DNA of 63,556 nucleotides from Thraustochytrium aureum (taxonomy: Eukaryota): positions 82,377 through 145,932 of the forward strand of contig BLSG01000423.1 in the NCBI GenBank assembly GCA_012862495.1, written 5' to 3'. Below, piece after piece: positions 2,614-63,556 of the stretch (the stretch's first letter is position 1; every line of letters starts with the position of its first letter). The position numbers and the translations under genes were made by a program. The notes under the pieces were generated by a model. The model saw nothing but the letters and a program-made list of their open reading frames with translations, was not told the origin of the DNA and did not search any database.

Positions 2614-2937
2614 GCGGGCGGCCGGTGCGCGCGCGCGGACAGGCGCGCGTCACCGCGACTCTCGCTCCAATTTTGACTGACAGCTCGGTGTGCAGAGGCA
2701 AAGCGGGCTGCTGGCATGGCCAGTCCCCGCTTTGCCTCGACGCAGGGGCTTGCCAGTGCTCATCTTTTTTTTAACCGTTCGTTCATTCAGGGATCAGCCG
2801 ATTACTCGCGCTGAGGCACCCGTCGTTCAACTACTTCTCATCATCATCAATTCTCCATCAACAACAACGCTGCAACTTTGCACCTTTCCATTCTCTGCTT
2901 CACCATCTACTTCGTTCCTCTTCGTCGATCTTTGGTC

Positions 2938-6200: not shown

Positions 6201-6938
6201 GGGTCGGCGCCTCGGCGCAACAGGAACTGGCCACGTCTTCGGCGCCATTCAACATCGCAAGTGCCAGCGGGGGGTACTGGCGGCCGTCGGGCAAGGCCGC
6301 ATTCACGTCTGCGCCGAGGTCGCAAAAGTGCGCCGCGCGTTCCATGCCGTGGTTGTGCTGCACTGCATGCACGAGCGCGTGCGAGACGATCGCCTTTGAC
6401 CACTTGATCGCGGTCATCGAGCAGCCCTCTGCGGAGAACACCAGCACACGGCCATCTCGGGTGCGCAACAGAAAGCTCTCCGCTTTGAGCTTGACCTTGG
6501 CGCCCACATCGCCCTGCGTGGCCGGGCACGCGGCGTCAAGCTTGTCCCACCCGATCACGCTGGGGTCGCGGCCGGACGTCTGCTTCGAGTAGGCGATGCC
6601 CTCGGCGTCCACCAAAAGGAGCTGTTTTTTCCAGCTCTTCATCCAGTTCGTCTTGAGCTTCCACACCTGTTCCGAGTATGCCCCCAGCAGTTGCTTGCCG
6701 CCGCGCGCTCCAGACCGCCCAGTCGACGCCACGGCGGAGGCCTCGTCGTCTGGGACGAGCAACTGGATTTGCGACGTCTCCACGCTTTGCACGGGCTGCA
6801 AGACTGTTTGCCGCCCAGAGGTTGCTGCGCTCACAGTGCTCGGTCCAATGTCCGTGCAGATCCGGTCCAGCAGCGTTTCCAGCGAAACGCCTTCTTCCTC
6901 CTTGCGCACGAGGGCCTTGGCCCCGTGATCACAACGAG
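3284..6938 (-). CDS. PH-domain plus multi-ankyrin-repeat protein (5' end in gap; frameshift near 6230)
   Basis: PH-like segment VWKLKTNWMKSWKKQLLLVD...FLLRTRDGRVLVFSAE...AIKWSKAI (ORF 6172..7530). It is followed by many ANK repeats (GWSLLHYLA, DTVLHLAI, GDSALHIAV, YTPLHIAV, HCPLHLAV, WCPVHRAC) in ORF 3284..6529. Confidence 0.85.
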
Positions 6939-7657: not shown

Positions 7658-10600
7658 CTACGAGATGGCCTCCTGCATGAAAATGAGGTTGTCGATCTTG
7701 GACCAGAACGCTAGCTTGCCGTCCGCGGAGAGGAGGGCGTGGATGTGCGCGCGCACGTCGCGGTCCGCGCCGCCGCCGCCAATCAGCTGGTCTCCAGACA
7801 GCTTGCCCTCGAGGTTGGCCTTGAGCACTTTGTAGACCTGCTCGAAGCGCTTGCGCCCCAGCGCCTTCACACACTCGTCTTCCAGCTTGCGAACGCGCTC
7901 GCGGAGGCCGCCACGCTGAGGGGCGGCAAGCCCGCCATTCTGGGCGTCGCCCTCCAGGACGGGGCTGAAAAGCCCGTCGTCGCTGCTACTCTCGTTGCTC
8001 GAGTCGCCCTCCGACTCGTCTGCATCTGTGGTGTCGGCGTCGGCTTGGTTTTTACTGCCGGCGTCGCGTCTCCCCCCGTGCTGCGGCGTTTCCTTGGTTT
8101 TCACGCTTGTGCCGTGCCAAGCTCGCCGAGGTCCTGTTCGGGCTGGCTGCTTGCTAGGTGCATTCTGCGAGTTGGCCTCCAGCTCCCCGCCCTCTTCCCG
8201 CCTGTAGCCTGGGTGACCTTCTTCCTCCACCACCTCTTTCAGGGCGTCTGAGATAGTCTCGTCGGCGACTTGATCGTCTTCATCGTCGTCATAGTCGTCG
8301 TCGTCGTCGTCTTCTTCATCGTCGTCGTCGTCGTGTCCTTCCTCAACTTGTTCAATTTCGGCTTCGCTTCGTCGTCTCGGTGCGGCGGCGCCCTCGCTGG
8401 AGACCCCACCGCCCCGTTGCGCTGCAGCAGGCTGGGGCTGGAGCTTGAGTTCGCTCCGCACGACCCGGAGGGTTTGCTTGATTGTCGAGCACCGCATTGT
8501 GGCGGCTTCGAGCTCGACGCGAAGTTCCTCCTCCTTGTTATCCAGGTCGTCGTCGTCCGAGTCGGCGACAGCCATCGACTCGGGCATGTACGAGTGGTCA
8601 GAGTCATCCTCAATGGATCCTTCAAAGCAATCCTGCTCCTCCGCCAGCTCACACGGCTCGTCCGCGATGCTGTCGTCCTCGACACAGCAGCCTTGATCTT
8701 TGTCGCGGACAGACGAGGCGGGCGGGGCGACGACGAATCTCCTCGGACTTTGCCTGTCGCGGGGGTTGTGGAACTGGTTGCGATGCAGCTCCTCGCCGCG
8801 GCGCAGCTCCACCATTCGCTCCTGCGCAGCAGCCATGAGCCGCTCCCTCTGGAGGCGCTCCTCTTCTCTGCGGCGATTCTCCTTCATGGCAAGCACGACC
8901 TCGCGATGCGAAGGCGCGGTCGGCGGTGGCGGAGACCGCGGCGGCGGCGGCGGCGAGTTTGGCGTGGGCGGCGAACGTGGCGAGACAGCTCGCCTCTGCG
9001 GCACGATCGCAGCGGCATGAATGGCGAGCTGCGCCGCGTTGGCGGCCGATTTCTCCTCCGCGATTCGGTCTTTGTACTGGCGCTCGAACTGCATGGCTTT
9101 GCGCTGCGCCACGAGCCGGGGGTTGTGACGGCGGAGTTTTTCGAGGCGGTCGTGGCGCGGCTGGCTTTTGAGGTCGTCTGCACGGCGCTGTGCCGCGCGC
9201 CGGTCATCGGCGCGAGCGCGGCGCTTGCGCTCTTCCTCGTCGCGGAGGGCCTCGCGCCGGAGACGTGCTTGCTCTTCGCGCTCCTGCATGCGCTCGATGC
9301 GCAAGCGGCGCTCATTTGCGCGCAGGAGGCGCTCCTTGCGCAGCTTCTCCAACGCGCTCTCAACGGCGCGTTTGCGCTCTTTCTCGATGAGCAACGCGTT
9401 GCGCTGGTCGCGCGCGGCCTGCCGAAGCGCCCGCGCGTCGTGTGCGCNNNNNNNNNNNNNNNNNNNNNNNNNNNNNNNNNNNNNNNNNNNNNNNNNNNNN
9501 NNNNNNNNNNNNNNNNNNNNNNNNNNNNNNNNNNNNNNNNNNNNNNNNNNNNNNNNNNNNNNNNNNNNNNNNNNNNNNNNNNNNNNNNNNNNNNNNNNNN
9601 NNNNNNNNNNNNNNNNNNNNNNNNNNNNNNNNNNNNNNNNNNNNNNNNNNNNNNNNNNNNNNNNNNNNNNNNNNNNNNNNNNNNNNNNNNNNNNNNNNNN
9701 NNNNNNNNNNNNNNNNNNTGCCGAGGCACTCAAGCTGGCGCTTGAGGTTGCGCGTCTGCTTGTCTTGCATGGAAAACCCTGCGGCACCGGCGCCAAGCGC
9801 GGCCTTGCGGAGGACCATGGTCCCCGCGCCAATCTGGGCGGCGGGCCGCGCAGTGACGTCGCGCAGAAAGTGGAGAACGTGGCGTTTCACGAAAGGGAGC
9901 CCGAGGATTTCTGGCAGAGAGGGACGCGCCGCTGGGTCGAGCGCGAGCATGCGGTCCACCAAGCCGGCGAGGTTTCGGCTAAAGCCTGGCGGGAGGGGGT
10001 CGTACTGGCCCTTGACAACCTTGCCCATGAGGCCGTTGAGCGACTTTGCGTTGAAGGCGTGCTTTAGCGTGATCATCTCGTAGAGGACGCAGCCGAGAGC
10101 CCAAACGTCCGACTTGTGGTTGTAAGGCCGGCTGCGGTACACTTCTGGAGACATGTAGTACGGCGTGCCGATCGTGGTCTTGGTAAAGTCCGTCGAGGCG
10201 TCGAGCGCCTTGCTGATGCCGAGGTCCCCGATTACGAGCCGGCCGTTCCCGAGCAAGAATATATTCTGCGTCTTCAAGTCGCGGTGCAGCACGCACTTGT
10301 CGTTCATGTCGTGCATAAAGTGCAGTCCGAGCGCCAGCTGAACAAACCAGTGCAGGATCTGGTCTTCCTTGAAAAGGCGGCGCCCGTTCGCTTTCAACCG
10401 CTCGGCCAGGTCGCCGCCGTCGCAAAAGGTCATGACGATGCACAACAGCCTGCCGGACCGCGCCACGAAAGACTCTTTGAACCCGACGATGTTGGGGTGC
10501 ATCATCGCGCCCAGGAGCTTGACCTCGGTCTGGCACGCCCTGCGCTCGCTCTCGGGGATGCCCTCCAGCTTGATGGTCTTCATGCAGTATTGCGTGCGCT

Positions 10601-10676
10601 CATCGCGGTGCCGCACGAGGTAGACCCGGCCGAACGAGCCTTTGCCGACCTGCCTGATTATCTCGTACTTCTCCAT
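7658..10676 (-). CDS. NIMA-related (NEK1/NEK4-like) Ser/Thr kinase with coiled coil and acidic tail
   Basis: GKGSFG, HPNIV, FCDGGDL, WFVQLALGLHFMH, HRDLKTQNIFL, GDLGISK, GTPYYMSPE and YNHKSDVWALGC. The C-terminus (LRERVRKLEDECVKALGRKRFEQVYKVL) is NEK-type. The two ORFs are joined across gap 9448-9718. Confidence 0.93.
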
Positions 10677-11368
10677 GGCGCCGCCACTCGCCAAGCCCGC
10701 CCTGTCACCCGNNNNNNNNNNNNNNNNNNNNNNNNNNNNNNNNNNNNNNNNNNNNNNNNNNNNNNNNNNNNNNNNNNNNNNNNNNNNNNNNNNNNNNNNN
10801 NNNNNNNNNNNNNNNNNNNNNNNNNNNNNNNNNNNNNNNNNNNNNNNNNNNNNNNNNNNNNNNNNNNNNNNNNNNNNNNNNNNNNNNNNNNNNNNNNNNN
10901 NNNNNNNNNNNNNNNNNNNNNNNNNNNNNNNNNNNNNNNNNNNNNNNNNNNNNNNNNNNNNNNNNNNNNNNNNNNNNNNNNNNNNNNNNNNNNNNTATGG
11001 TGTCGCTGCAGGACCGTTTTAAAACGCGCGTGCTCCTCGCGGTTTTCGTTGGAGGCTCACACTCACGTTGTGGACCGGGAGCCGGCGAATGTGCGACGCA
11101 CGACGGGTTTAAAAGCGGCGCGGGCATGCTCGCTCCCGCTGAGCTCCCTATCTGTCGAAGATACAGTCTGGACGCGGCATCGGGAGGGAAGCGCCAGGGG
11201 ACTGACTCGCTGGTTCAAGTTGCTTGCACTGCGTGCGGGAGCTCACAAGAGTTGGTTTTTGAAAGCCCACTCGACCATTACCGGTTGGTCGACTGCTCAC
11301 CGAGGGCAACTGTGCGTAGGACTTGTGCTTTGTGTTGGGGCGAACTAGGGAGTGCGAACCTGCTCAAA

Positions 11369-12562
11369 TCAGTACATGCGCTCCTTGATGGCCGAGCGCA
11401 GGCTGGCATCGGCTTGGCCGGACGCCGCGGTGCTCTTTCCGTCGGTCGCCGGGTTCCATGCTGAGTTGCAGATCGAGTATGTGTTGGGGCAGTACTTGGG
11501 GGCGCTTTCCGCCACCAGCTGCGCGCCAGCCTTGCCTACGAGCTCGGCGTACGACTTGCCGAGGTCGTGCGTATCGAGGTACCTTTGGTGGCCAACGCAG
11601 TTGCTACCGTTCTCGTCGCAGGCGACGTTTTTTGTGGAGAAAGTGTCTGGAATAGCCCACGCACATTCGCTTTCGATGCCGAGCTGGTTCTCGCCAAGCT
11701 TGATGCGAAAGTAGCCCATCTCGCCCCAGTAATCTCCCCAGCTGTTGCGCACGATCCAGTACTGCGATCCGTCTTTCTCGTCGGTGCCCCAGCCGACGAC
11801 CGAGACCGCGTGATCGATCTCGCGCGAGGCATGCGGCAAGTCGATGATACCGCCCGTGTAGTTGAGGATTTCAACTGCGTTGACGGCACACGTGACGGGG
11901 CCGCGCGCGTAGATTTCGCGCATAATAGCCTTGCGGTTGGGCAGGGTGCCATACTCGCCGATAGTCACATTGGGAAACGAAGTGATACCAGAGCAAAAGC
12001 CACCTTTGGACGGAAACGTATCGCACGTGCGGCACGTGTTGAGCGCCGAGCACGTGTAGTCGGCATCGGCGCAGGTGCCCGACGTCATTTCGGCGCTGCA
12101 CGCGAGGTACTGCATGCAGCTGTCGTACGGGATGAACCCTTGCTTCTTGGCAAACTCGTACAGGCCGGTGGGACTGCCGCCATGGCAAGAGCCGGCGATG
12201 CCTGCGCCGCAGTTGAGGATCTGCTGGATGCTCAAGTTGATGTCGGGGAACTCGCCCTTGCGCGCGATCTTGAGACGGTCGGCCAGGGAAGAGAGCGCGG
12301 CATGCGCCCAGCACGAGCCGCAGTACTGCGGGATGTGTTGGTTAAGCGTCCGGGTCACGTACGATACGCCATTCACGTTGCGCCAGTCCCAGCTCGCAGG
12401 CAGCGAGACGCCGATGAGGTACGGGTGCGAGTGGTCATGCGTCTTCCAGTTGGTCTTCGTGTGCCCGGGCAGTATGACGTACTCGTTCTGCCGCTTGGCC
12501 GCGGTCACGGCGACCAAGGCGGCGACCAGGGCCGAGTACAACGACAACGACGCAACCTTCAT
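11369..12562 (-). CDS. CTSZ: Cathepsin Z/X (papain family C1A cysteine peptidase) with signal peptide
   Basis: Signal peptide MKVASLSLYSALVAALVAV, LPASWDWRN, the cathepsin-Z-specific NQHIPQYCGSCWAH, IDHAVSVVGWG, YWIVRNSWG and NQLGIESEC. Confidence 0.95.
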   Translation of the reverse strand: MKVASLSLYSALVAALVAVTAAKRQNEYVILPGHTKTNWKTHDHSHPYLIGVSLPASWDWRNVNGVSYVTRTLNQHIPQYCGSCWAHAALSSLADRLKIARKGEFPDINLSIQQILNCGAGIAGSCHGGSPTGLYEFAKKQGFIPYDSCMQYLACSAEMTSGTCADADYTCSALNTCRTCDTFPSKGGFCSGITSFPNVTIGEYGTLPNRKAIMREIYARGPVTCAVNAVEILNYTGGIIDLPHASREIDHAVSVVGWGTDEKDGSQYWIVRNSWGDYWGEMGYFRIKLGENQLGIESECAWAIPDTFSTKNVACDENGSNCVGHQRYLDTHDLGKSYAELVGKAGAQLVAESAPKYCPNTYSICNSAWNPATDGKSTAASGQADASLRSAIKERMY

Positions 12563-24702: not shown

Positions 24703-27700
24703 TCATAGCTCCTCCCCGGAGCCCCGGAGCACGCGCGGCTCAAGCGCGGAGGCGGCTTTGAGCAAGTCTTCTACGTGCGGGAGACGCGAAAAGTAGTGCA
24801 AAAACCTCCGCCGACTCTTCGCAGCCTCTCGCTCCACCTCCCTGTTGCACATCTGGACGACAAACGGCATGTGGTCCAGCAAGCTCGGGTGCGTCCGCCG
24901 CTGGTTGGCCGTGCCGGAGCCTCCGCGAGACGCTCCTAGCGCAAAGTCACTCAAGCACGCCTCCGCAACCCGCCGAGCCAACTTGAGCCATGCCCGCTGG
25001 CGCTCGTCCAAACCGTCAGGCTCGCCCTGCCGCGGTCGGTGCTCGGTCAGACCCGCTTGTCTCGCTGAAAGCTGGTAGGCCTCTGCGCGCAGTGCCGCGC
25101 GGAGCGGCTCGCCAGGAACGAAGGGGGCCCCCGAAAAATCTGCGACGATGTCGTGGTTTGGCGCCACCCCGCGCTGCCGGCCACGCGAAAGCGGCGGACA
25201 CGTCACAACCTCCAAGAGGGACCGCGTCTCCAAGAGCGTCACAAGTTCCCCGAGGTCCCTGTCGATTGTCGCGCAGGCGTGGCTATTCGTCACCCGTGAC
25301 TCTGGCTCTGGGCCAAGGTCTGCTTTCGCCGTTGCAGGGCCCACGTCGCATGGTTCGGCAGCGAGCTTGTATTCGAAGAATGCGTCGCTCGTGCCCACCA
25401 AGTCGATGGCTGACGCGGATGCAACTCGCTTGCCACATTTGAAACCGAGCTCCAGACGAACCGTGCGCGGCCATGAGCGCGACTTGGCGGCGCGCATTGC
25501 CGCCGTGGGCTTGGCGCCATGCAGTCCCCTCACGTGGCCAGACCTCCCTGCTTTGCCGGGCGGCAACAAAAAATCGTCGTCCTCCTCGTCGTCGCTCTCG
25601 ATTTCGTCCTTGCTGCCTGCCTCCTCGCAAGTTGGGCTGCCGTCCCGTGGCAGAGGCAGGCCAGCGGATCCCAGCGCCTCAAAACCTGGCATGGGCGGAG
25701 TGGTGGCCGACCACGAGCCATCTTCGCTCGCCGAGACGGCCGAACAAGGCCGTCCGCCCACAAGGACGACCGCGTTCGCAACTCCAGGCGGAGCCAAGTT
25801 TTCTCCGGAAATGACCAGCGCAGTCGACCCATGTGCTGGCCCGCTCGCAGGCGCTACTGTGCGAATCACAGGGGCTGGCAAAGCCCAATCCCGCTGGCGC
25901 TTCGCCGCTGGACTTGACGCTGCCAGGGCAAGGAGCGCGTCGTCCAGCAACGTGCTTTGCCCAAGTTCGAGGTGGATACCGTACTCGTCGCGCTGCTCCT
26001 GCAGGTCCGCGTCGGATCCAACAGGAGGGAACATGCAGATGCGGACAGGGTCTGGGATGGTCGTGGGTAGAACCACGTCGTCAACCACGGCGTCAGCTCG
26101 ATGCAGATCCACAACGTGCGGCGTTGGTCGAGGCGGCGAGGAGAGGTCTAAAACCTCTTGCTGCCTCGGCTGGCATTGGCGAGGAGCGCGAGGGGGCGAT
26201 GGAGGAGCAGCATGGCCACAGGGTGGGCCATTCGCGGGAGCGCCGTCGGGCGCCTGCTCGTCGCAGTCTTGCACCTCAACGAACTGGATCTCGGAAGGGG
26301 CGACCGACGCGAGCGCTCGCCTTGGCGACTCGAGCTCAAGCGAGCAGTAGAACTGCAGGTGGTTGAGGCAGGCCCTTGGGTCCCGCTGCTTGAGGCGAGC
26401 GAGAGTCCGAAGCTGCTCAAGAGAAGCGCGCACCCCTTCCGCCAAGCAGACGCACTGGAGCGCCGCAACCAGGTCGTCCATGGAGGGCGGGTCGACGCGC
26501 ATTGTCGCAACGAACGCGTCTTCGACGACAGCAGTCATGTCATGCGGGACCCGGTTGCAAGTAACCACGACGGGGCACCGAGCGCTCGCGACAAGGGATT
26601 TTAGCCACGCGTAAAACCCTTTGTCCTCGTCGAAAACGATGTCAGCCTCGTCGACGAGCACGATCGAGTTGTTGAGAGCAGCCGCGGGGCCAATTACGCG
26701 CGACTGAGTCGCCTCGCCCAGGGTCTGCTTCATTTGCGTCGCAGACCGGAGCTGCCCTGGGTGGGCCTCCACGACCTTGTAGCCAAGACGCGCGGCAGCG
26801 TGGTGTACAAAGGCTGTCTTGCAGGCTCCCGATTGGCCCACGAGAACTTGGATGACTGCGCTTGAGCTGCCCCGCGCCATGCCTGCGCCCCAGCTCGAGT
26901 TGCTCCCGTCTTCGCTATAAAAGCCAAGCCCGGAGTTGGAGTCGACGCCGTACAAAGGGTGTTGCGGGTGCGGAGCTGTCCACGTTGACAGCCAGCGCTC
27001 CAGCTCTGGCATGGCCGAGTCTGCGCCAGTCGCTAGCAGATCACAGCACGGGCCCATGTACCGATCCACCCAAGACTGCCCCGCGTCGCGGCCGGCCTTG
27101 GCCAGCGCAACCGTCGCGAAAGGCCGCGCGAGCGCGCGGTCAGCAAGCCCCAAAGACGCGGCNNNNNNNNNNNNNNNNNNNNNNNNNNNNNNNNNNNNNN
27201 NNNNNNNNNNNNNNNNNNNNNNNNNNNNNNNNNNNNNNNNNNNNNNNNNNNNNNNNNNNNNNNNNNNNNNNNNNNNNNNNNNNNNNNNNNNNNNNNNNNN
27301 NNNNNNNNNNNNNNNNNNNNNNNNNNNNNNNNNNNNNNNNNNNNNNNNNNNNNNNNNNNNNNNNNNNNNNNNGACGTGCGAGCGGGCGCCAAGCCCCCAA
27401 GAGCTCGTCAGTGGCAGCAAGTCGTGCGACGTGATCCGCCCGCGCTGCGCTCGCGAAGGACTCCCAGTCCAATGCGGCCACCTCGCGCGGCGTCAGCACG
27501 GGCCTGGGAATCCCCAGCGGGCCGGGAAAGTGGGGCAGATTCCACCCGCCCTCGGGACTGTATTGCGGGCCAAAAGTGCTTTCGTCCTCGCCCATGGCGT
27601 TGCCCGCAGCGCCGTAGACGCGCCGCTGGCGTGGCATGAAGAACGGGTTGACTTTTCCTGTAACTCTTGGGGCGGGATCCTCGCTGGTTGGCCAGTTCGC

Positions 27701-40546: not shown

Positions 40547-43041
40547 CTACGAAGATAGAGTGGGGTATGTAATTTTTTTTGTTGCGCCCGCTCTTCCCCC
40601 CGCCCCCACTTCTTTCCCTGTGGTCGTCGCTCGCGTTCGGCCTGTCGCATTTCCCGCTGCGCTAGAGTCGAGCTTTGCCTGCGGGGGGCCAGCCGGAGCT
40701 GGCAGCCGCTCGTTGCCACCCTGAAGGAACTCAGTGTCCAGGTATGGCTCCAGCGCGCGGAGAAACGCGGGCACCGGCTTGGCCTCGCCAGTCTGCTGGT
40801 TCACATTCACCGAGCTCTTCCGCGCGGCCTCGAGAAGCGCCTCGTAGACCCTGCCGTCTGCACGGCCCAGCGTTGAGTTGAGCACACGGTCGGGCCAGTC
40901 AAAAGCGTCCGTGAGCGCGACCACGTCTGGGCGCAACTCGGCGCACAGCCGGCTGGACGCCTCTTCCGCAACTTGGAGCGAGCCCACGTCAAGGCCCCAC
41001 TGTTCGCCCTCGAGAAGATCGCTCACCGCATAGAGAGCACAGAGTCGCCCGAGCACGCGGCGGCACGCGGTATCCTCCACGTCGGCCAAGGAAGCGGCAA
41101 ACTTGGCCAGAATGAAAAACCGCACGTGGCAGCGGGCCGCAAGGACCAGCAGGCGCGCCGACCCGTTCCAAGCCTCGTGCGCCCCAACGCTGCGCTCGAG
41201 CACGTCAAGCCTGTGCGCTGCTCGCGTCATGACCACGAGACTGCGCCACTCGAACAGGCGCGCCAAGTACGACGGGTTGACGAGATCCTCCAGTGTTGGG
41301 GCCGCAACGAGGCCGAGGCGCTCACGCCCATTCACGACAGGGTCAAAACCCGGTTCAGACAGCGGGGCCAAGCACTCAACGAGGCCCACCAGCGGCTCAC
41401 CTTTGCGCGCGGCGCGGACGCTCTTCATGAGAAAGCGCGCCGTCTGTAGGCTCAACAAGATGGGATCGCCCTCCGCCGTGGCATTGGGGCCCTTAAAGTC
41501 GGCCTCGAGCGGGGCAATCCCACTGCTCATGAGGAACCCGTGCCCCCCGCATGCACGTCGGAGGTCCTCGATTCCGTCAGCGGCGCGGCACGTCGTCTCG
41601 GCCTTGAGGCTCGACCCCAGGGCGTGCACCTCTGGGAGCTCATCCAGGTCGACCTCCCCACCGCTTTGGATGGCGCGCCTCCGCCTCACCATCCACATCG
41701 TGACCCCCTTGAAAGCATAGGCGGTGGCGAGCCACTTGCAGACCCGGTAGAGCTGCACCGAGTAGTCGATAACCTGGTGCTCGCCGCCGTCGGGCCGAAA
41801 CCCCTGCAGCCGCACGCACGAGTACCGGCCGGCAATCGTGCAGGCGCGCGCGAGCGCGCCAGCCGCCGTCGAGGCTAGCGCGATGCGCGTCTTGAGCATC
41901 GTGACGTACTTTAGCGCTTGCGCCATCTTTGGGTCGGCCGGCTTGGCTTTGGCGGCGCCCGAGGTCCCGGCTCGCATCGAGCCGGGCTCTGGGCCGATCC
42001 GCCACTCGCCTGCCGGCGTGACGTGCACGCGGCGCTCGAGTAAGAAGCGGCGCGGGATGCGCACTTTGTTAAACCTGCAAAACCCGATCGTGGCGTCACG
42101 CTCGCCGAGCGTCTCGCCAACGTCGCCCACCTCAATCCCTTCCAAGGGCCGCAAGTCGGCGCCGCGCAGCTGCACCATAAACATGTTGAGCCCCTCGTGC
42201 TTGCCTTGCACGTAGGTCTGCGCAAACACGAGCGCGTGCGTGCTCAGCGGGAGGCCCGTCGACCACCATTTGGTGGCGCCCACGGTTGGCGTGTGCAGCT
42301 CCCACTCCTCGCGCGCGGCGTCGTAGGTGGCGGTCGTCTGGATCCCGCGAACATTGGACCCGTGCGCGAGCTCTGTTTGCGCGTAGCACCCCAAAATGGC
42401 GCCCTTCTGGCTGCGCTCGAGAAACCACTCCTTTTGCTCGTCCGAGGCGTGGCTCCGCAGCGTAGAGGAGAACACGCCAAAGTTGATCGTCAGGGCGGAG
42501 TTGGTCATCTTGGCGTCGCTCATGTGCTGCATGTCCATGTCCTTGGGCACAAACCCCCTCGCAAAGTGGCTCTCATGGACCTCCATAAAGTGCTTGACCG
42601 CGTGCGTGATCTGCTCCTCGCGGCTCGCCTCGGCCGCCACCGTGGCGACGGCATCGCTGTGAGCGTCGAAAATCCACTTGCGCCTTGCGGTCTGCGCGGC
42701 CCCGCCGTTCAGCACGTCGGTCNNNNNNNNNNNNNNNNNNNNNNNNNNNNNNNNNNNNNNNNNNNNNNNNNNNNNNNNNNNNNNNNNNNNNNNNNNNNNN
42801 NNNNNNNNNNNNNNNNNNNNNNNNNNNNNNNNNNNNNNNNNNNNNNNNNNNNNNNNNNNNNNNNNNNNNNNNNNNNNNNNNNNNNNNNNNNNNNNNNNNN
42901 NNNNNNNNNNNNNNNNNNNNNNNNNTTCAGCACGTCGGTCATCGTCGCAGTCACAAAGCTGGCCTTGCTGCGCTCAGCCTCGAGCACCGCCTGCAGCTCG
43001 TCGTCGCCGCCGTCCCGCGCCGAGTTGGCCGTCGACGCCAT
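40547..43041 (-). CDS. ACOX: Peroxisomal acyl-CoA oxidase
   Basis: LEAERSKASF, GCYAQTELAHGSNVRGIQTTATYD, LHTPTVGATKWW, IAGRYSCVRLQG, LRRACGGHGF, TAEGDPILLSLQTARFL and LRPDVVALTDAFDWPDRVLNSTLGRADGRVYE. The true end is probably QAKL at about 40670. Confidence 0.96.
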
Positions 43042-46674: not shown

Positions 46675-49586
46675 ATGGCCAGCGCATTCTTGCACCCGAG
46701 GCACATCTTTGGGGTGAAGAGCGATGTGAAAGACGGTATCTGGTACCTGGAGGAGAATGTGGTGCTTTACCCCGCTGGGCACAACACGATCGTGTACCAC
46801 ACGGAGACCAAGACGCAAAAGTTCATCCAAGGCACTGAATCATCGCGCGGCATCACCGCGCTTGGAGTGAGCCCGAGCAGGCGATACGTCGCGATCGCGG
46901 AGCGCGGACAACGCGGGATGGTGAGCATCTACGACTGGCACAGCCAGAAGAAGCGCAAGGTGCTGACCAGCACAGAGTGCGGGTCGTCCGAGTACGTCAG
47001 CGTCTCGTTCTCTTCCAACAAGCTCCTGCTCACGCTGGGCGGCGCCCCGGACTGGACCCTAGTGCTATGGCAGTGGGAAAAGTCCAAGGTGCTGTGCTCC
47101 GTCAAAGTGAGCAATGCCGCGAATAGCCCTTTGTACCAGTGCAGCTTCAACCCGGTCGACCCCTCCGTGGTCTGCGTGACGGGAGACGGCATCTTCAAGG
47201 CATTTCGAATCGTTGAAAACCTCTTCAAGCCGATGCCAAATTTGCTGGGCACCATGGAGCCGCGCAAGTTCACGGCCCACCTCTGGCTCAACGACGACCG
47301 CGTCGTTCTCGGCACGAGCGAGGGGGCGCTCGTCCTTTTCGAAGCGGGCGAGTTCCTTGCTGTGCTCGAATGCTCTCCCGACGACGGCAACGCGGTCACG
47401 TGCATGGCCACTCTCTCGGACGGCTTTGTAGTCGGGTGCGCTGGCGGCGACGTGCGCGTCTTCCAAGCGGTCGCTGACGACGAGGGCTTTTACCGCGAGT
47501 CGAAGGCCGTTTCCGTCACCGCTGCGCTGGAAAAGGCAGCTGGCCAAAACCAGTTTCAAGTGGGCGCCCCGACGATCTTGAGCGCTGCCTCGCGCAACGG
47601 AGCAGCCGCAGCCTCAAAGCGCACGCTCGACGGCACGGGCGACCCTCGCGCTAGCACCGCCTTGCTCCGCTCAAACACGCTGCGCAGCGTCAACGAAGCG
47701 GCGGAGAGCGCCAACGCGGCGTCCGAAGAGATCGAGGAGGACTTTGTCGAGAGCGTTATTTCCATCGCGGTTTCCCCCAGCGAAGAGCACGCAGTGGTGA
47801 CGCTAAACACAAACCAGCTCGTGCTGCTGCGGCTGACGAGCAACGACCTGCTCAAGCAAAACGAGATCAGCGTGGAGGTGCTCTCTGACTCGTTTCACAG
47901 GCAGGGTATGGGGCGGACGGCGCGCATCACGGGGCTGGACGTCTGCATTCGCAAGCCGCTCGCGGTCACGTGCGGCCTGGACCGCTCGGTGCGGGTGTGG
48001 AACTATCTCGACAACCGCAACGAGCTGACCAAGTTTTTCGGCGAGGAGGCCCACTCGGTGGCCTTTCACCCTTCTGGCCTGCACCTCCTGGTGGGGTTCT
48101 CCGACAAGTTGCGCCTTCTGAATTTGCTCATGGACGACATGCGCACGGCCAAAGAGCTCCCGATCAAGTCGTGCCGCGAGTGCCAGTTTGCGAACGGGGG
48201 GCACATGTTTGCCGCCGTCAACGGCAACACGATCCAGGTCTTCAACACGTACACATGCGATGCGTCCGCACTATGCGCGGCCACAACGGCAAAGTGCGCT
48301 CCCTGTTCTGGTCGGCCAACGACGCGCAGNNNNNNNNNNNNNNNNNNNNNNNNNNNNNNNNNNNNNNNNNNNNNNNNNNNNNNNNNNNNNNNNNNNNNNN
48401 NNNNNNNNNNNNNNNNNNNNNNNNNNNNNNNNNNNNNNNNNNNNNNNNNNNNNNNNNNNNNNNNNNNNNNNNNNNNNNNNNNNNNNNNNNNNNNNNNNNN
48501 NNNNNNNNNNNNNNNNNNNNNNNNNNNNNNNNNNNNNNNNNNNNNNNNNNNNNNNNNNNNNNNNNNNNNNNNNNNNNNNNNNNNNNNNNNNNNNNNNNNN
48601 NNNNNNNNNNNNNNNNNNNNNNNNNNNNNNNNNNNNNNNNNNNNNNNNNNNNNNNNNNNNNNNNNNNNNNNNNNNNNNNNNNNNNNNNNNNNNNNNNNNN
48701 NNNNNNNNNNNNNNNNNNNNNNNNNNNNNNNNNNNNNNNNNNNNNNNNNNNNNNNNNNNNNNNNNNNNNNNNNNNNNNNNNNNNNNNNNNNNNNNNNNNN
48801 NNNNNNNNNNNNNNNNNNNNNNNNNNNNNNNNNNNNNNNNNNNNNNNNNNNNNNNNNNNNNNNNNNNNNNNNNNNNNNNNNNNNNNNNNNNNNNNNNNNN
48901 NNNNNNNNNNNNNNNNNNNNNNNNNNNNNNNNNNNNNNNNNNNNNNNNNNNNNNNNNNNNNNNNNNNNNNNNNNNNNNNNNNNNNNNNNNNNNNNNNNNN
49001 NNNNNNNNNNNNNNNNNACGAGTGCGTGCAGACCGTGCAGGACCCTGCGCGACTGCGAGACCACGTCCAGCGCCTCTACGAGGGCTTTGTCAACGAGCAG
49101 GTCAAGTCTGAGACAGTCGACGTGGACATCAAGCGCGAGTACCATCGCCAGAAGGACTACCTCGAGAAGAGCGCTGAGGCGCTCAAGCGCCGTCTCGAGC
49201 GCGACGTGCACAAGCACAAGGACGAGAACATGAGGATCATGGAGCGGAACATGAGCCTCATCGCGGAGATCAACGACCTCCGCGAGGAGATTCGCACCGC
49301 CCGCATGCGGAGCATTGTTGAGGCCTCGGACGTGTCCAAGCCGTCCAAGCAGCCACCCATCGGCAAGTCGCCCGCCAGCTCGAACCGCCAACTCAAGCAG
49401 CGAGCTATTCCGGTTGGTGGGCCGAATTCAGGCTTTGGTTCGCCGACGATGACGCCGGAGGAGTCTGCGCTGATGGAGGAGCAGCGGGCAGAGATTGGCC
49501 GTCTCAAGGCGTACCTCGCCGAACTGGAGGAGCGCATGGCGCAGGCAAAGCCTGTGTCGCGCGAGCGCCTTGCACCATTGCCCTGA
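46675..49586 (+). CDS. CFAP57: Cilia- and flagella-associated protein 57 (WDR65/FAP57)
   Basis: HIFGVKSDV...YPAGHN...TQKFIQGTE..GITALGVSPSRRYVAIAE, SFH..ITGLDVCIRKPL.VTCGLDRSVRVWNY and SVAFHPSGLHLLVGFSDKLRLLNLLMDD. C-terminal coiled coil REYHRQKDYLEKS...IMERNMSLIAEINDLR. The middle lies in the gap. Confidence 0.95.
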
Positions 49587-50037
49587 CGGCGACGCACGCC
49601 TATTGGATGTACTATGGAATGCTGATGGCCTGGCCTGGGGTTGAATCAAATTGCCGAAATGCTGTTTTCGTTTTTTCTCGCGGTTGAGTACTTACTCGGT
49701 ACAGAAGCTAGAGCTAGAGGCCAAGGGTATGGATGGCGGGGCGGTTGCGTTGCGTCCTTATTTGACCGTGCGCGCAAGGTCGAGGTGCGCGAGGCAGTTG
49801 ATCGCGCCAGGCAATCAACGCGAGGCGAAGCGTACGCGTGCGCAGACGCGCGCGCACAACACGCGCGCAAAAACACATGAAATCTTCTACATGAGAGCAC
49901 ACAATTATCTCACCGCCAGTGGACGCTCAAGCCCGTTCGGGCCACGCTTGCGTGGCGAAAACGCTCGGCCGCAGCGCACTGGTCGACCCGACAGCGAGCT
50001 GCCAGCTACGCGTAGCCCACTGTCAAAAGCTAGCTAG

Positions 50038-52216
50038 CTAGTCAGAGTTGCCAAACTCGGTGTACACCATCCTATGCGCAAGCAGCGGGAGCGTCTCAAG
50101 GGTGTCGTTCGTAACGCCCTTGTAGTACGTTTCAGAAGCCCGGCGTACTGGCGCAGCGAAGAGTCGATATACGGCTGGCGCTCCGCCGGGATGCTCGGGT
50201 CTTTGTCCAAGCACATCCGCACGAAGGAATCGATCTTGCTGCAAAACATAATGTCCACCAAGAGCTCCTCGTTGTCCGTCGTGTTGGTGTCGTCAAAAAT
50301 GGCCATGCGACGCTCAAAAGAGCTCTCGCCGCTGTACACGTTTGGCGGCACCGTGACCTCGCCAGTTCCGCCCCCCTTTTTGGAGTCCCCAAAGCTGGAG
50401 CGGCGCTGCAGGATCGGCTGGCTCGCAGCAGGGTCTGGCAGCGATCCAAAGTCGCTGATCACCTGCGCATCGGTGAAGCAGGGCAGGTTGCGGCGGTCAG
50501 CCCGCAGCACCTTGTAGACGAGCGTGAGCTGGAAGAAGGTGCGCACCTCGCTGCTCCAGTGCAGGAAGAGGCGAAGGAAGAACTTTTTCATGATGTCGCC
50601 CAGAAAGCGAATTCGCACCTGGCCGTGAAAAAGGTGCAGTGTATTGTACAGGAGGCTAAGCACCTTGAGGAGCACCTGGAACTGCTCCGAGTGGAGCAGC
50701 TTCTCGATGCCAAACCAGTAGTTGTCGTAGTCGAAGGCCTCCGGCAGCGTGGGACGGACCGCCTCCTTGGGGTTGTCGACGATGGTCTGCTTGGGCGGCG
50801 TGTTGCGGCTGTTTTGGTTGTGATTGACGATGCCCTCGCGCGCCGTGGCCGAGTAGGCCACGGTGGAAAACCACAAGTTGAGGTGCTCGATGCAGCTGTC
50901 GACGCTAAGGAGCGAGTGCAGGTTTGTGCACTCGTACGTGAGCTTGACGAACGGGTTGATGAGCGACTTGTTGCTCAGCAGGGCGAGCGCGCTGCGCTTG
51001 ACGCGCATGTAGGCCGCGAGCGAGCTCACCCAGCCGTTCGACTCGCCCACCTTGCGTTTGCAGATCCCGTCCCACCACATGGACGACTTGAGAAGGGGCC
51101 AAAAGCACTCTAGCAAAAGGTCGTACGCCGGAATCGCGCCCCACATCACCGGTTTGGTCGCCACGCTCTCCACGTGGACGACGTAGACCTCGACAAAGGT
51201 CAGGAAGAACGTTTCCTTCGTCGAGAGCCACGCCAAGCAGGCGTTGTCGTTGGAGAGCACGCTGGGCCCCAGCGCTGCTGCCTCCGACTCGGAGTTGAAA
51301 TAGTTCCACTGGAATAGGTCTGGGTTGTTGACGATGAACGCCGACGTTGACGAGGCGTCCGCGTCGTCCCCGAGCGGCCGAAGCGTGCGAGCCAAGGCGT
51401 CCGGCTCACGGGGCCCCGCGCGCGCCGCTGCGGCGCCAGCAACGGGCGCCTTTGGCGCTGCCTCCTTGGCGCTGCCAGCAGCTTGCCCCGCCTCGCTGTT
51501 CAATGAAGGCGCGCTGCCGGGTGGCGGGAGGGCCCCTGCAAAGGCTCCTCCTCGCCAGCCCCGCGCGGGGCTGGCGGGGCTGGCGGCGGGTTGCCGTCGG
51601 CGATGGATCGCTGCGCGGCCGCTTTCCGCTGAAGCGCGTCTACGATGCGCCCGCCGACAAGGGGCAGGCGGAAGAAGAAGACTACCAGTGTCTGTGCGCT
51701 AAAGTGGATGATCTCGGCAAACTTGCCCTTGGCGGTCATCGACTTTAGCACCAGCAGAAAGGTGCGGAGCAGTAGGGCTTTGTAGCGCTCGGCCATGCGC
51801 AGGTTTGCGGCCGAGCAGCGCGGCCCGGCGCTGTCTGGGCCAAAGCCCAGCTTGCGGAGCGTAAACTCCTCACGCTGCATGAGCATCACGATCAGGGCGT
51901 ACCCGAGCTCCTTAATCGCGGGTTTGGTCATGATCACCACAAAGTCGAGCAGGTACTCCCACAAGTTGAGCAGATCCTCCTTCGCGCGCAGCATCTCTGC
52001 CTCGTCCGTATTGGTAAAGCACGGCTGCTTGATGTACGGGTCCAACTTGCGCAGCAGCGCGATCCTGTCATGCAGCGTCATCCCGGTCCCGCGGCCCGCA
52101 GCCGCCGACGTGCTGCGCACAGACACCTGCTGCACCATCTTCGTGAAGCTGGGCGACCACCTGGCGTAGTTGGTCGGCATCGTCAGCCGCCGCAGCGCAT
52201 TCACCAGCCCATCCAT
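50038..52216 (-). CDS. DUF1765/UPF0592-like alpha-helical protein (frameshifts near 51520 and 50130)
   Basis: FSAQTLVVFFFRLP and FDYDNYWFGIEKLL.SE...LLKVLSLLYN...FFLRLFLHWSSEVRTFFQLTLVYKV resemble the DUF1765 family core. Confidence 0.65.
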
Positions 52217-53298
52217 CCTCGCCCGCTAACGAGCCGCCGAGCCTCGCAGCATGCGCAGCGCCCCCGCTCTGCCCGCCTGCCCTCCTCGCGCCTGCCCTCC
52301 TCGCGCCTGCTCTCCTCCTCCGCCGCCTCCGCCTCCTCCTCGCCCTCCTGCCCGATGCGCGTCTGCTCACTCCGAGTCACTCGTCTGTANNNNNNNNNNN
52401 NNNNNNNNNNNNNNNNNNNNNNNNNNNNNNNNNNNNNNNNNNNNNNNNNNNNNNNNNNNNNNNNNNNNNNNNNNNNNNNNNNNNNNNNNNNNNNNNNNNN
52501 NNNNNNNNNNNNNNNNNNNNNNNNNNNTCTGATGATTCTGATCAGCACCGATTGAAACCGCAGCTCAATCGATTGAAGGGCACTCCCCTCCTCCAAGACC
52601 TTCGATTGAAAGAACAACTGACGAAGAAGCTTCGTTTGATCGGGATCAACAGGAATCGATTCAATCGATTGTCGCCACGCGAACAACGGGAACATCTTTC
52701 TTCTTGAATGAATTATGAATCTTGATATCTCAAATTCAAGAATCGAGATCGACCCTGGCATGGTGTTTGCTTTCGTGCTGTCGCCAAGGAGCTTTGGTGT
52801 CGCGCATTCAGAGTTCCACCGCGGCCGGCGCTGGGCACAGTAGGTACAGTAACTTTAGTTCTGTACACGGAACAGTAAGTACGGTACTCTACTTACCACT
52901 TCCTTCCTTGCATTCCTCGTTGTCGCTGATGAGTTCGCACGGCGGAAGGCGTATTTTGCCGTGGGCGGACACGTTCCAATTGGCTTCAGGCTTCAGGTTG
53001 GTGCACTCCGAGTTCGAGTTGGTCGTATTTCATGCAGGCCGGCGCCGCGAACGACGCGGCGAGAGATGCTTTTGGGCTGCTGCGTCCTGCCAGTGTGCGG
53101 GCAGTGGACTCAAACTCGCACCGTCGTTTTGCCTCTTCAAATGCAATTCAATCAATCAATCAAAACTCAAAAGCAGTCCTGATTCTGTCAGCACATCGGT
53201 CGAACGCACGACCGCTCGAAAGCACAAGTGGTCGGCGCGAGTCGCCCCACGCCTCTCCCCGCGAGGGCGCGAAGCAGCAAAGGCAACGTGCTAGCGCG

Positions 53299-54132
53299 AT
53301 GGCGACCGACAAAGGCGCGGGGCTCTCGTTCCGCGTGGTGCCGGGCAAGTCGATGTTTGAGCAAGTTCTCGCCGGGGAGCGCGGCTTCCCGCTCACACTT
53401 GACGAGTTTGAGGCGTTTCTCAAGCTGGAACACAACGACGAGAACCTCGCGTTCTTCCGCGCGGCCGGCGAGTACAGCGGCAGCCCCAGTGCGGCCCTGC
53501 GCGACGAAATCATCAACAAGTTTATCGCACCAGGGAGCTCCCAGGAGATCAACTTGTCCGCAGCAGAGCGGGACCGGGTGCTGAGCCGCGCGCAAGATGG
53601 AGCGCCGACCGACTTGTTCGCGCAGGCACAAGAAGTCGTCAAGCGGCTGATGGAGCAGGACTCGTTTGAACGCTTTGCAATGCAGGCGTCCAAGAACAAT
53701 CTTAGCGTTGCGCACTCGCAGAGCCGAATGCGCTGGGGGTTTGCATTCATTCTCCTCGGCGTGGTGATGGGCGCTGCAACCATCGTGATGCAGAGCCTGA
53801 CACAAGGCGTCCCGCTCAGCGAGCGGTATTGGCGGGCTCTAACGGGCCCAATGTTCGTGCAAGGGTTTATGCAAGTTGTGACAGCGCGAAAGCGGATTTG
53901 CCCAAGCCTGCTCGTCTTGAACGTTCGAATGACGGATGGCGTGTCGTACTTTAAGCTTGTATGCTCGTCGAGCATGCGAAGGCGCGGTAGCTTCACCATT
54001 AAAGACGAGTACATCCAGCGCAAGCTGAAGCGCCGCGCCTTGCTCGCCTCTCTTGAGGGCGTCTTCTATGGCCTGTTTGCGACCACGATCGTCGTGCTGC
54101 TGCCGCCTGGGACAGACCTGTACGGGTTCTGA
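53299..54132 (+). CDS. RGS-domain protein with three C-terminal TM helices (Rax1/RgsB-like)
   Basis: RGS core FEAFLKLEHNDENLAFF...IINKFIAPGSSQEINLS...LFAQAQEVVKRLMEQDSFERF. Then hydrophobic WGFAFILLGVVMGAATIVM, YWRALTGPMF..., ICP and a final GVFYGLFATTIVVLLPPG. Confidence 0.88.
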   Translation: MATDKGAGLSFRVVPGKSMFEQVLAGERGFPLTLDEFEAFLKLEHNDENLAFFRAAGEYSGSPSAALRDEIINKFIAPGSSQEINLSAAERDRVLSRAQDGAPTDLFAQAQEVVKRLMEQDSFERFAMQASKNNLSVAHSQSRMRWGFAFILLGVVMGAATIVMQSLTQGVPLSERYWRALTGPMFVQGFMQVVTARKRICPSLLVLNVRMTDGVSYFKLVCSSSMRRRGSFTIKDEYIQRKLKRRALLASLEGVFYGLFATTIVVLLPPGTDLYGF

Positions 54133-59875: not shown

Positions 59876-62266
59876 CTACGTCTTGGATGCGGTCTCGGAA
59901 GCAGAGACGGCGCCTCGCGTCAAGCTCTGCCCAACGAGCGATCCCAGGCGAGAGTTTAGCTCCAGCAGACCCATGGCGCCGCGCTTGAACAAAATCATGC
60001 TGTCCAACAACGACGCGAGCATCTTAATACTGCAGGGCTTTGGAAGAACGCCGTTAAAGTCGGCGCCGTGGACACGCTCCATCTCGCCCATGCTGCTGAG
60101 CGCAGCCGTAAAGGCCATGATCACAAGGCCGCCGCGGTGCGGCTGGGCTCGGATCAGGTTTGTCGCTTCTATGCCGTCCATTTCTGTCATATTGATGTCC
60201 ATCAAAATCAGGTCGACAAGCCTCCTGGGGTCGGCGCAGTGCTCGACAGCGCTCTCGCCGTCTTCGAGACACACGACGTCCTTGACGCCTGCCTTTCGAA
60301 GCAGCCGAAGCATCACGGCGCAGTTGACGGCATTGTCGTCAACGACGAGGACGCTGAGCTGCTCAATAGTGCAGGTCGCGTCAGCGCGACTTTGAGCCCC
60401 TCGTGCGACTCTGCTCGATGCTGCGTCGTCCGCAATGATGCCCTCGGCCGGCACTGAAACCGAAAACTGTTGCGCAAGCTGCGCCACGTTGTTGCTGTTA
60501 CTGCTGCTGCAGTCGTCGCGAGACGACTCGTCGCTGGAAGATGCCGTTCCCGCGCTCTCGAAATGCTTCCACCCGGCTGTCGGCTCCAGAAAGGAGTCGA
60601 GCAGTCCGTCGACCCTGGGTGCTGCTTCGAAAGGCAACAGCGCGAAAAAGGTGGTGCCTTCGCCCTCGACGCTCTCCACGTGTATTNNNNNNNNNNNNNN
60701 NNNNNNNNNNNNNNNNNNNNNNNNNNNNNNNNNNNNNNNNNNNNNNNNNNNNNNNNNNNNNNNNNNNNNNNNNNNNNNNNNNNNNNNNNNNNNNNNNNNN
60801 NNNNNNNNNNNNNNNNNNNNNNNNNNNNNNNNNNNNNNNNNNNNNNNNNNNNNNNNNNNACTGCTTGTGCGGATTGTTCGCCTCCTCGTGCGCGTCGCGG
60901 TCCGCGCTCACCGCGGTGCTGGTTCGCTGCCCATGCACGCTCGTGAGGAGCTCAACGGGCTCGCCTTTGCTGCTGCTACTGCTGCTGCTGCTGCTACTGT
61001 TGCTGCTACTGCTGCTGGCACTCGCAGACCATGGCTGAGAAATCTGGACTCGCACCTCGTCGGAGCGGACGCCGGAGCGCGCCACGCCGTGCGGGGTCGG
61101 CGGCCGCGATCCTTGGTTGCCATCCTGTTCGCGAGCCTGGCGCGAGCCGCGCCTGGAGCCCTTCATCAATAGCGGTTGCTCCGCGCTGCCCTCGCCGTCG
61201 ACGAAAACCCGCGCGTGAGCTAGCCCCCTCGCGGTCGAAGAAAATTCGTCCTCGAGGTTGTCCATGTCAAAGCTGGCGCCACCGCGCCTCGCGATCGAGG
61301 CGGCGTTGGGCGGTGGCGGGCTAAAGGTGTGCTCGCGAGAAGCAAAGTTTTCGAGCCAATCTGCGCGTTGTGCCGCCGAGCCGATCATCGTCAGAGAGAC
61401 GGAGACCGAACCTTCCCTCGTGAATTTGACGCCGTTGCCGACTACGTTGCTCAGAAACTGAACCAGCCTGGTCGCGTCCGTGAGAACGCGGCTCGGAATA
61501 CCCGGGCCGATGTGGAACCGCAAGTTCACGTTGGCGCACTTGGCCGTCCCTTCGGCGATGCTGAGCGAGCGCTCGATAGCCTCGCGCAGGCAGACCGGCT
61601 CTGTCTCGAGGGCGAACTCGGCCTTTTGGTACTTTGCAAAGTCGAGGATGTCGTTTATAATGTTGGCCAGGAGGGCGCGCGCTCGAGAGGAGCGTTCGCA
61701 CCATGGAGAGTTGACCAGAGTTTAGCGGGGACGCCTCGAGCAGCTCGGCAAACCCGAGGATCGACTGCAGCGGCGTGCGCACTTCGTGCGACACGGTCGC
61801 GATAAAGTCCTGCCGCGTCTGTGCCAGCTGCTCGGCGGCTTCTTTGAGTACCTGCAATCGGATGTACTTGGCGTTCATCTCCTTGAGCAGCCGCGAGGAC
61901 TCGTCCACCGCGTCCTCGAGGGCGGCCGCCTGCTCCAGCAGCATGGAGAGGTCCTTGGTGTGCTTGATTAGAACGAAAACAGTGGTGACAGAAACCACGG
62001 CGGTGGCGCCGCAGGACGCGAGCAGGAGGTGGGGAACGCGGTAGAAGAACGAGATGAAGTGAAACATGTGCGTGAATCCGCAGCACACGATGAACAGCAT
62101 AAAGCACACGCGGACGGTCTTGAACACGTCGGCGACTTCGATCCGCCTCAAAAACAAGAAGATCTGCACCGGGATCACAAAGTACGCCACCGCGATGAGA
62201 AACTCGCTCAGCATGGCAGCCGTCGACACGGCCTCCCACTCCCCATCCTCGCCCAGGAGCCCCTCG
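59876..62266 (-). CDS. Hybrid histidine kinase with ETR1-type ethylene-binding TM domain, HisKA, split HATPase_c and receiver (5' end in gap)
   Basis: Sensor SEFLIAVAYFVIP...FIVCCGFTH...TAVVS. H-box FIATVSHEVRTPL; INDILDFAK after a frameshift near 61675; N-box DATRLVQFLSNVVGNGVKFT; VESVEGEGTTF. Receiver VLVVDDN...LILMDINMTEMDG...MAFTA...LPKP. Confidence 0.93.
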
Positions 62267-63556
62267 NNNNNNNNNNNNNNNNNNNNNNNNNNNNNNNNNN
62301 NNNNNNNNNNNNNNNNNNNNNNNNNNNNNNNNNNNNNNNNNNNNNNNNNNNNNNNNNNNNNNNNNNNNNNNNNNNNNNNNNNNNNNNNNNNNNNNNNNNN
62401 NNNNNNNNNNNNNNNNNNNNNNNNNNNNNNNNNNNNNNNNNNNNNNNNNNNNNNNNNNNNNNNNNNNNNNNNNNNNNNNNNNNNNNNNNNNNNCGGGTCT
62501 GCAGCTGGTGGCGCTGCCGCCGCCGCCCCCTTGCGCGCAGAGCAGCTCGCTGCGCTTTGGAAGCTACTAGCTCGCTTTAAACAAGCTATAGCTTCTCCGA
62601 AGGGAACCCGCACAAGCTAGCCTTGAGTGCGCTCGGAATGTTGAGCCTGGCGGTGGGGAACGCTACCGAAAGGCCAAGTCGGGGAAGCGCAGTCCATGCA
62701 GGTGCAGCGAAGGAGGCCTCGAGGAGCTGCAGAACATCGACTCGGATGGGACGATAACGACGCGCATCATCCGGCGATCGCCTGTAACCGGCGCCGGGTC
62801 GCTGTGTGCCGAAGTAGTCTGGCATCGCTGGTCATCAGTAGGTGGGTGGGCCCGAGTGCCGCGCCGCCTCGGGCCGCGAAGAAGGCCGTGCGAAGGCGGT
62901 GCAACGAGCTTTGTAGTGGGCTACTAGTAGGATCGGGTATCAGCGGACGTGGTCCTTGACTGACCGCCTGACGCACGAGGGAACGAAATTCCATACCCGG
63001 TTGCCCCACGAGGCACCGGGCTGCGGAGGCTTGAGTGGTACCGGTTCATCTTGTGCTGGGAGGAGGAGGGTGGAATCAGTTGGAGCCGGCCCAAACCCCC
63101 GCGCAATTGAGTGCCGATACCACGCGGTACACTTCCCCGCACTGCATCGTGCTCCAGGCACGCATTGGAATGGATTTGGCGGACGAGGGGAAGGGAGCTA
63201 TTGAAGTGAGCGGCCGTTTGACCGTGGAGTCGGTGCGAAGGGCTCCACGTGAATGTTGCCAATCCTCAATCCACAACAAACCAAGCGAGTGCTTGCAGGC
63301 CTCTGCAAGTCGCCAACGCAGCAGTCGCCGGAGTGCGTCAAGATCCTGAGCCTCGAGGGTGGGTATGTGCTCAACCATCGACGTCCGTGACCTCCTCCAG
63401 TACATCGTCAAGATCACGACCAGGCCAGAATCCTCATGTCTACGAGTTGTTGTCGTTGAAGGAGCGATCACCTCAACAGACCACGCCGGGCCCAGCACCG
63501 CCAGCTCCGGGCCGCAGCGCTGCCTGCTTTTGTGAGACCGCCTCGAGCAAATCATC

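Follow-up and report, generated by a model that had tools for sequence, protein, structure and literature searches.

An ETR1-family hybrid histidine kinase with Glu and Cys at two key pocket positions in a probable thraustochytrid

Introduction

What does a member of the ethylene-receptor family sense when it keeps its copper ligands and is changed at both of the residues proposed to set affinity and to relay the signal? The question is raised by a gene in a stretch of 63,556 nucleotides (the window), which a sequence-only reading had presented as an ethylene receptor with an intact binding site, in a lineage where no such system was thought to have been described. The latter claim does not stand, as a 2019 review lists Labyrinthulomycetes among the lineages with ETR homologues (PMC6944256), and a further source reports such homologues in filamentous marine protists, pseudofungi, diatoms and brown algae and states that none of them has been the subject of functional work (PMC7700396). 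Indeed, non-plant eukaryotic homologues of ethylene receptors have been catalogued and are largely untested, none having been tested in SAR as of PMC7700396. That the window host might sense ethylene from decaying plants, as the sequence-only reading suggested, is a conjecture already put forward for flagellated saprotrophic early-diverging fungi (PMC5285503), and kinases of Agaricus, far more divergent than the protein described here, are reported to bind ethylene in yeast (PMC9603746).

Our own literature search, in which subscription journals were scantly covered, found no study of an ethylene receptor or histidine kinase in thraustochytrids. As the group is named in PMC6944256, and as a diatom has homologues whose layout likewise lacks a GAF domain, the novelty for the lineage is small, and the window gene or an orthologue may already be among the published Labyrinthulomycetes homologues. 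The mere occurrence of the gene is thus unsurprising, and it is the altered pocket that is worth testing.

Results

Domain layout and fold of the receptor

The gene and its parts lie on the minus strand as follows.

59876..62266, minus strand: whole gene for a hybrid histidine kinase of about 800 amino acids, in three pieces, its start inside the N gap just upstream
61948..62217, minus strand: ETR1-type ethylene-binding domain with three membrane helices (Pfam, hydropathy, AlphaFold2)
61816..61947, minus strand: helical linker, helix III running straight into the kinase without GAF or PAS (Pfam)
61678..61815, minus strand: HisKA/DHp domain, phospho-His at 61786-61788 (PF00512, E 8.3e-12)
About 61673, minus strand: one extra base, a +1 frameshift in the window copy, absent from the run contigs
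61386..61670, minus strand: remainder of the DHp domain, followed by the first half of HATPase_c, whose N box is at 61422-61448
60861..61385, minus strand: Ser-rich low-complexity insertion of about 175 amino acids within the ATPase domain
60687..60859, minus strand: N gap over the G1, F and G2 box region of the ATPase domain
60011..60352, minus strand: receiver domain (PF00072 Response_reg, E 2.1e-18)

This is one real gene, which encodes an ETR1-family sensor domain, a coiled coil, HisKA, HATPase and a receiver. The designation as an ETR1-type hybrid histidine kinase, made originally from the letters of the DNA, is borne out by Pfam, in which ETR1_N (E 3.9e-19), HisKA (8.3e-12) and Response_reg (2.1e-18) are all matched. 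The comparison with domain profiles that the same reading had proposed returned PF25487 (ETR1_N) at 69.2 bits against a cut-off of 27, the match extending over profile positions 6-94 of 97. A profile built from 88 locus-derived domains gave the sensor domain 84.6 bits, compared with 19.7 for the best of 1000 shuffles; as the 88 loci had been found with the window domain itself, it is Pfam that provides the independent test of family. The best ESM Atlas matches to residues 10-115 were likewise ETR1_N clusters (0.90-0.92). Hydropathy reveals three membrane segments in the sensor domain, and the AlphaFold2 model, built on an alignment of 89 rows, consists of helices at residues 7-41, 46-72 and 78-114 with a mean pLDDT of 90.8. 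A Foldseek search of this model against the PDB returned nothing at E 0.001 or better, and a PDB sequence search matched the kinase helices only, with no match to the sensor domain.

Around 45 helical residues join the sensor to HisKA, a segment matched in alignment by the helix ahead of the DHp domain in ERS1 (4mt8) and in 7z8n, and the Pfam search gave no GAF hit. In the kinase part both the H box, with its His, and the N box are present; HATPase_c is matched by Pfam only partially. The receiver contains the acidic pair (60332-43), the phospho-Asp (60197-99), a Thr within 60101-12 and a Lys (60038-40); the phospho-His (61786-88) and the receiver Asp and Lys are present, as had been claimed. 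By likeness, a homodimer would be expected for such a protein. Of the N-terminal cysteines that form the dimer disulfides of plant subfamily I receptors, none is seen in the 20 residues that precede the pocket Glu described below, nor in the 10 codons legible at the ends of contigs; the protein begins within the N gap. Within the window, tblastn detected no second kinase or receiver beyond the receptor gene, and an exact look-up of ten window translations in the protein collection found none of them (0/10).

Intactness of the gene

The window copy carries a frameshift at about 61673 and two N gaps, features absent from the original description. Five public runs cover the stretch or part of it, and the best four (X1-X4, from two studies) were compared; X1 may be the window's own source. 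The contigs of all four lack the extra base at 61673, the evidence consisting of one contig each at a depth below 5 in X1 and X4, three contigs at depth 36 in X2 and two at depth 66 in X3. Agreement among the four runs indicates that the extra base is an assembly error and not a lesion of a pseudogene. The TorS and BarA profiles are collinear across the site. The N gaps fall within the ATPase domain (60687-60859) and over the gene start (62267-62493). Contig ends reaching into the inner gap are in frame, by eye, with the D-T-G of the G1 box at one edge (X1) and the helix that follows G2 at the other, the F and G2 boxes lying inside the gap itself. At the outer gap the contig ends, read in the same way, place an ATG in frame, seven codons upstream of 62265, an earlier start being possible. 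GC3 is 0.74-0.85 in the coding frames compared with 0.41 in a wrong frame.

The gene is also present in the runs as a second copy, whose DHp region is about 92% alike and whose sensor-domain loops have diverged further. Represented by one contig in X2 and X3, this copy has 22 differences over 263 bases of the linker and DHp domain, of which 18 are synonymous when each is classed singly, and in X1 diverged pieces occur beside matching ones. We read the second copy, from these sequences, as a probable paralogue or divergent allele under purifying selection. Joints at 60168-60250 and 60280-62054 have CT..AG ends with unknown letters between, and were read as matching parts of the diverged second copy rather than as introns. 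On the evidence of the run contigs, the receptor gene is intact. The window as a whole contains 22 runs of N, and the reads reveal at least one single-base error in it; other apparent frameshifts in the assembly should be distrusted.

Neighbouring genes and the host

Around the receptor lie the following genes, of which the acyl-CoA oxidase served as the lineage marker.

1134-2774, plus strand: HSF, an ordinary eukaryotic neighbour
3284-6535, minus strand: ankyrin-repeat protein, an ordinary eukaryotic neighbour
9720-10709, minus strand: protein kinase, an ordinary eukaryotic neighbour
11369-12562, minus strand: papain-family protease, an ordinary eukaryotic neighbour
40547-42721, minus strand: peroxisomal acyl-CoA oxidase
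46675-48327, plus strand: CFAP57 orthologue (axonemal), cut by an N gap
50034-51698, minus strand: DUF1765 protein, an ordinary eukaryotic neighbour

The acyl-CoA oxidase nests among thraustochytrid sequences, displaying 64% identity to a Schizochytrium protein (in a cluster that includes Hondaea fermentalgiana) and 61% to a cluster with Mucochytrium quahogii. In a tree of 42 oxidase rows it groups with Hondaea, Schizochytrium and two further rows (SH-aLRT 99), with Mucochytrium outside (94). On this one gene tree the host is likely a thraustochytrid (Labyrinthulomycetes). The CFAP57 orthologue (PDB E 1e-100) shows a flagellate, and together the two genes agree with the proposal, made before any database search, of a flagellated non-plant protist. 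Two other reading frames may be mentioned: one at 53032-54132 on the plus strand, 6 kb away from the receptor, in which an RGS domain (E 3e-15) precedes hydrophobic segments in an RGS-membrane fusion, and an ORF at 24703-27162 on the minus strand that has weak matches to AAA and IPT/TIG, both at E about 2e-5, an unusual pairing.

Changes in the binding pocket

ETR1 numbering was transferred to the window protein through its alignment with AzoEtr1 and the equivalences given in PMC11819568. AzoEtr1 was taken from a plasmid record of Azospirillum brasilense Sp7 (L161:1968-3545), and its 525 residues, D35, C75, H79 and K98 agree with that paper. The alignment with AzoEtr1 places the pocket residues as follows.

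62203..62205, minus strand: Glu at the Asp25 position (AzoEtr1 Asp35)
62182-84, 62173-75, 62170-72 and 62089-91, minus strand: equivalents of Tyr32, Ile35, Pro36 and Ile62
62080..62082, minus strand: Cys at a copper-ligand position (ETR1 Cys65, AzoEtr1 Cys75)
62068..62070, minus strand: His at a copper-ligand position (ETR1 His69, AzoEtr1 His79)
62011..62013, minus strand: Cys at the Lys91 position (AzoEtr1 Lys98)

The equivalents of Cys65 and His69, which lie one turn apart on helix II, are in place as the sequence-only reading had stated, and so are those of Tyr32, Ile35, Pro36 and Ile62. From work by Wang in 2006, the latter four are said to be the remainder of the seven residues required for binding, beside Asp25, Cys65 and His69. 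Measured against AzoEtr1, Y42, I45, P46, I72, C75, H79 and T101 are kept, whereas D35 has become Glu and K98 has become Cys. Thus six of the seven classical residues are retained, the exception being the Glu at the Asp25 position, and the basic residue at the Lys91 position is absent, a Cys standing there, 19 residues from the His just as K98 is in AzoEtr1. The description of the site as intact had left Asp25 and Lys91 out of its list of residues, and in this respect it has to be revised. Both changes are found in the reads. The Glu codon is unchanged in the contigs of X1-X4, one differing letter in three records being read as position 62202, and the Cys codon at 62011-62013 has clean cover in X3 with no other letter. 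In all, the sensor domain contains four Cys (residues 54, 61, 62 and 85).

Mutational work on ETR1 bears directly on these two positions. Seven residues are reported to be required for ethylene binding, with D25, C65 and H69 named (PMC10266040, PMC11819568, PMC6682694), and Lys91 has been proposed to bridge to Asp25, the two residues being proposed to set affinity and relay the signal. In the D25E form of ETR1 copper binding in vitro was minimal and ethylene binding in yeast, though still detectable, was much reduced; in planta this receptor was ethylene-insensitive and locked 'on' (PMC10266040). K91M and K91A bound copper normally and retained about 6% and 1% of ethylene binding, respectively, and in non-basic K91 mutants binding was uncoupled from output, some K91A lines being locked 'on' (PMC10266040). 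A natural D25N variant is functional with an affinity about 100-fold lower (PMC10266040, PMC11971883). Among 1,221 domains, position 25 is Asp in 93.55% and Asn in 3.67% (PMC10266040). The combination of Glu and Cys therefore likely means either weak ethylene sensing or another ligand and, as the protein fails at two residue tests, we do not class it as a high-affinity ethylene receptor.

Rarity of the Glu/Cys pair and position of the sensor domain

To place this pair among its relatives, 120 proteins and 160 loci were reduced, through 315 profile hits, to 293 distinct homologous domains. The Glu/Cys combination at positions 25/91 occurs in none of the 293, a set biased by its origin in four seed sequences and short patterns (one restricting position 25 to D, E or N), whose named rows come from bacteria and from which plants and named eukaryotes (fungi, diatoms, other thraustochytrids) are absent. 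The pairs observed were D/K (189), N/D (86), D/R (8) and H/L (2), with N/C, N/A, D/N, E/K, D/T, E/L, S/L and D/L found once each. Asp occupies position 25 in 197 of the 198 homologues with Lys or Arg at 91 and in 3 of the 95 without, so that the two positions tend to change together; it should be emphasized, however, that these counts are not independent, since 86 of the 95 belong to one Asn/Asp group. That bacterial group, with Asn at 25 and Asp at 91 in 86 of the 293 domains, displays an apparent relocation of the acidic residue, most of its named members being cyanobacteria of the Obscuribacterales type.

A tree (LG+G4, 122 columns) was built from 72 of the 294 rows after thinning at 62% identity. 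In it the window domain falls with the GAF-less hybrid kinases P0005, P0006 and P0145 at 100/95, apart from the named bacterial rows. Its branch is long, at 1.23 changes per site, and the grouping may be due in part to long-branch attraction. Low-sensitivity searches of viral contigs (with the window domain and P0005) and of phage records found no relative.

Discussion

We tentatively propose, at a little less than an even chance, that the intact ETR1-family hybrid kinase of this probable thraustochytrid senses ethylene, or a small alkene like it, through Cu(I), with low affinity and fast release. By analogy with ETR1 and AzoEtr1, the protein would form a membrane dimer with Cu(I) bound to the helix II Cys and His, and a small alkene settling on the metal would shift helix III. 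The anatomy of the protein suggests that, with no GAF domain in the way, helix III would act directly on the coiled coil and DHp domain, and that its shift would alter both autophosphorylation of the His and the onward transfer to the Asp of the receiver. With Glu and Cys at the two positions, binding would be weak and quickly released, a property suited to tracking changing concentrations, as has been argued for cyanobacterial Asn variants (PMC10266040). It could be argued, from the ETR1 mutants, that the double change goes further: as D25E is locked 'on' and non-basic K91 mutants are uncoupled, the Glu/Cys receptor may not respond to ethylene at all. Moreover, since P0005, P0006 and P0145, the closest relatives found, keep both Asp and Lys, the substitutions may reflect recent drift of a single paralogue.

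The same residues admit other readings. The Cys on helix III and the Glu on helix I may have remade the metal site for a different ligand, candidates being an organosulfur gas (methanethiol, dimethyl sulfide), CO, or the state of copper or redox itself. The absence of the pair from the 293 sampled homologues, the long branch of a gene that looks maintained and the four Cys of the domain are all consistent with such a switch, and a parallel has been drawn with an olfactory receptor of Cu(I) Cys/His type that detects organosulfur odorants (PMC10266040); every other binding position, however, is of the ethylene type, and we regard the switch as rather unlikely. Fuller in its detail, and in our view a long shot, is the idea that Glu and Cys form a compensated pair, a natural switch to another volatile such as an algal organosulfur gas, by which a GAF-less phosphorelay would guide zoospores to decaying material. 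Locked-on behaviour of ETR1 D25E and of some K91A lines (PMC10266040) argues in a different direction, that of a subunit blind to any ligand, which would be constitutive or would pair or cluster with a canonical paralogue and fix the phosphorelay's baseline. The runs, X1 included, do contain a second, diverged copy, but a blind subunit would have no need of the Cys, the His and the rest of the pocket, all of which are kept, and this makes such a role improbable.

Nor do we find it at all easy to retain the original view of a canonical high-affinity ethylene receptor in which Glu and Cys are tolerated by their sequence context. Six of the seven classical residues are kept, the seventh change, Asp to Glu, is conservative, and the Agaricus kinases mentioned above are reported to bind ethylene in spite of far greater divergence (PMC9603746). 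Against this, Asp and Asn dominate position 25 in the 1,221 domains, and D25E and non-basic K91 strongly cut binding (PMC10266040), so that high affinity is decidedly doubtful here. A decaying pseudogene or a bacterial contaminant, finally, might have been suspected from the frameshifted and gapped window copy and from the frequency of the domain in bacteria. The extra base, however, is missing from all four runs, there are no stops, and the differences of the second copy are mostly synonymous; the neighbouring genes are eukaryotic, and in the tree the domain stands with three proteins that lack GAF, apart from the named bacterial rows (100/95). We therefore reject both possibilities, which we consider extremely improbable, on the run contigs, the synonymous differences and the eukaryotic neighbours.

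Thraustochytrids can be cultured and genetic methods for them exist. As nature has changed exactly the two residues proposed to govern affinity and signal, the window protein, a compact sensor-kinase, offers a ready test both of that model and of whether the family senses other gases. Were the ligand to have been switched, the Asp25-Lys91 relay would have been replaced within the ethylene-receptor family of a marine protist.

Comparison with known systems

The window protein resembles ETR1 of Arabidopsis (subfamily I) in its three-helix domain, in the Cys65 and His69 positions with their neighbours, and in the union of a His kinase and a receiver in one chain. In contrast with ETR1 it has no GAF domain, carries Glu for Asp25 and Cys for Lys91, contains a long Ser-rich insertion in the ATPase domain, and displays no N-terminal disulfide Cys among its visible residues, the start being in an N gap. 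The sensor domain is 33% identical (E 3e-9) to that of AzoEtr1 from A. brasilense Sp7, a tested ethylene binder (PMC11819568). Unlike the window protein, AzoEtr1 retains D35 and K98. Its sensor and kinase are separated by an additional segment, PAS-like by eye, and it lacks a fused receiver, its response regulator gene lying next door (PMC11819568).

Among stramenopiles, the supergroup of the probable host as well, the diatom Fistulifera solaris has four homologues, FsolaHK12-15 (PMC6324907). Two of these, FsolaHK12 and FsolaHK13, are drawn with the order sensor-HisKA-ATPase-receiver and the absence of GAF seen in the window protein, whereas the diatom proteins are reported to retain all the ethylene-perception residues (PMC6324907). 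The Labyrinthulomycetes homologues noted in PMC6944256 are probably from the same class as the window host. Three proteins from ENA assemblies, P0005, P0006 and P0145, have the same four-domain layout and a shorter insertion at the same site of the ATPase domain; they rank 2, 7 and 3, respectively, for the receiver and are not top for the DHp or ATPase parts. P0005 and P0006 are 38-39% identical to the window protein over the sensor and DHp domains. All three, at 547-582 amino acids, differ from the window protein in keeping the Asp and the Lys.
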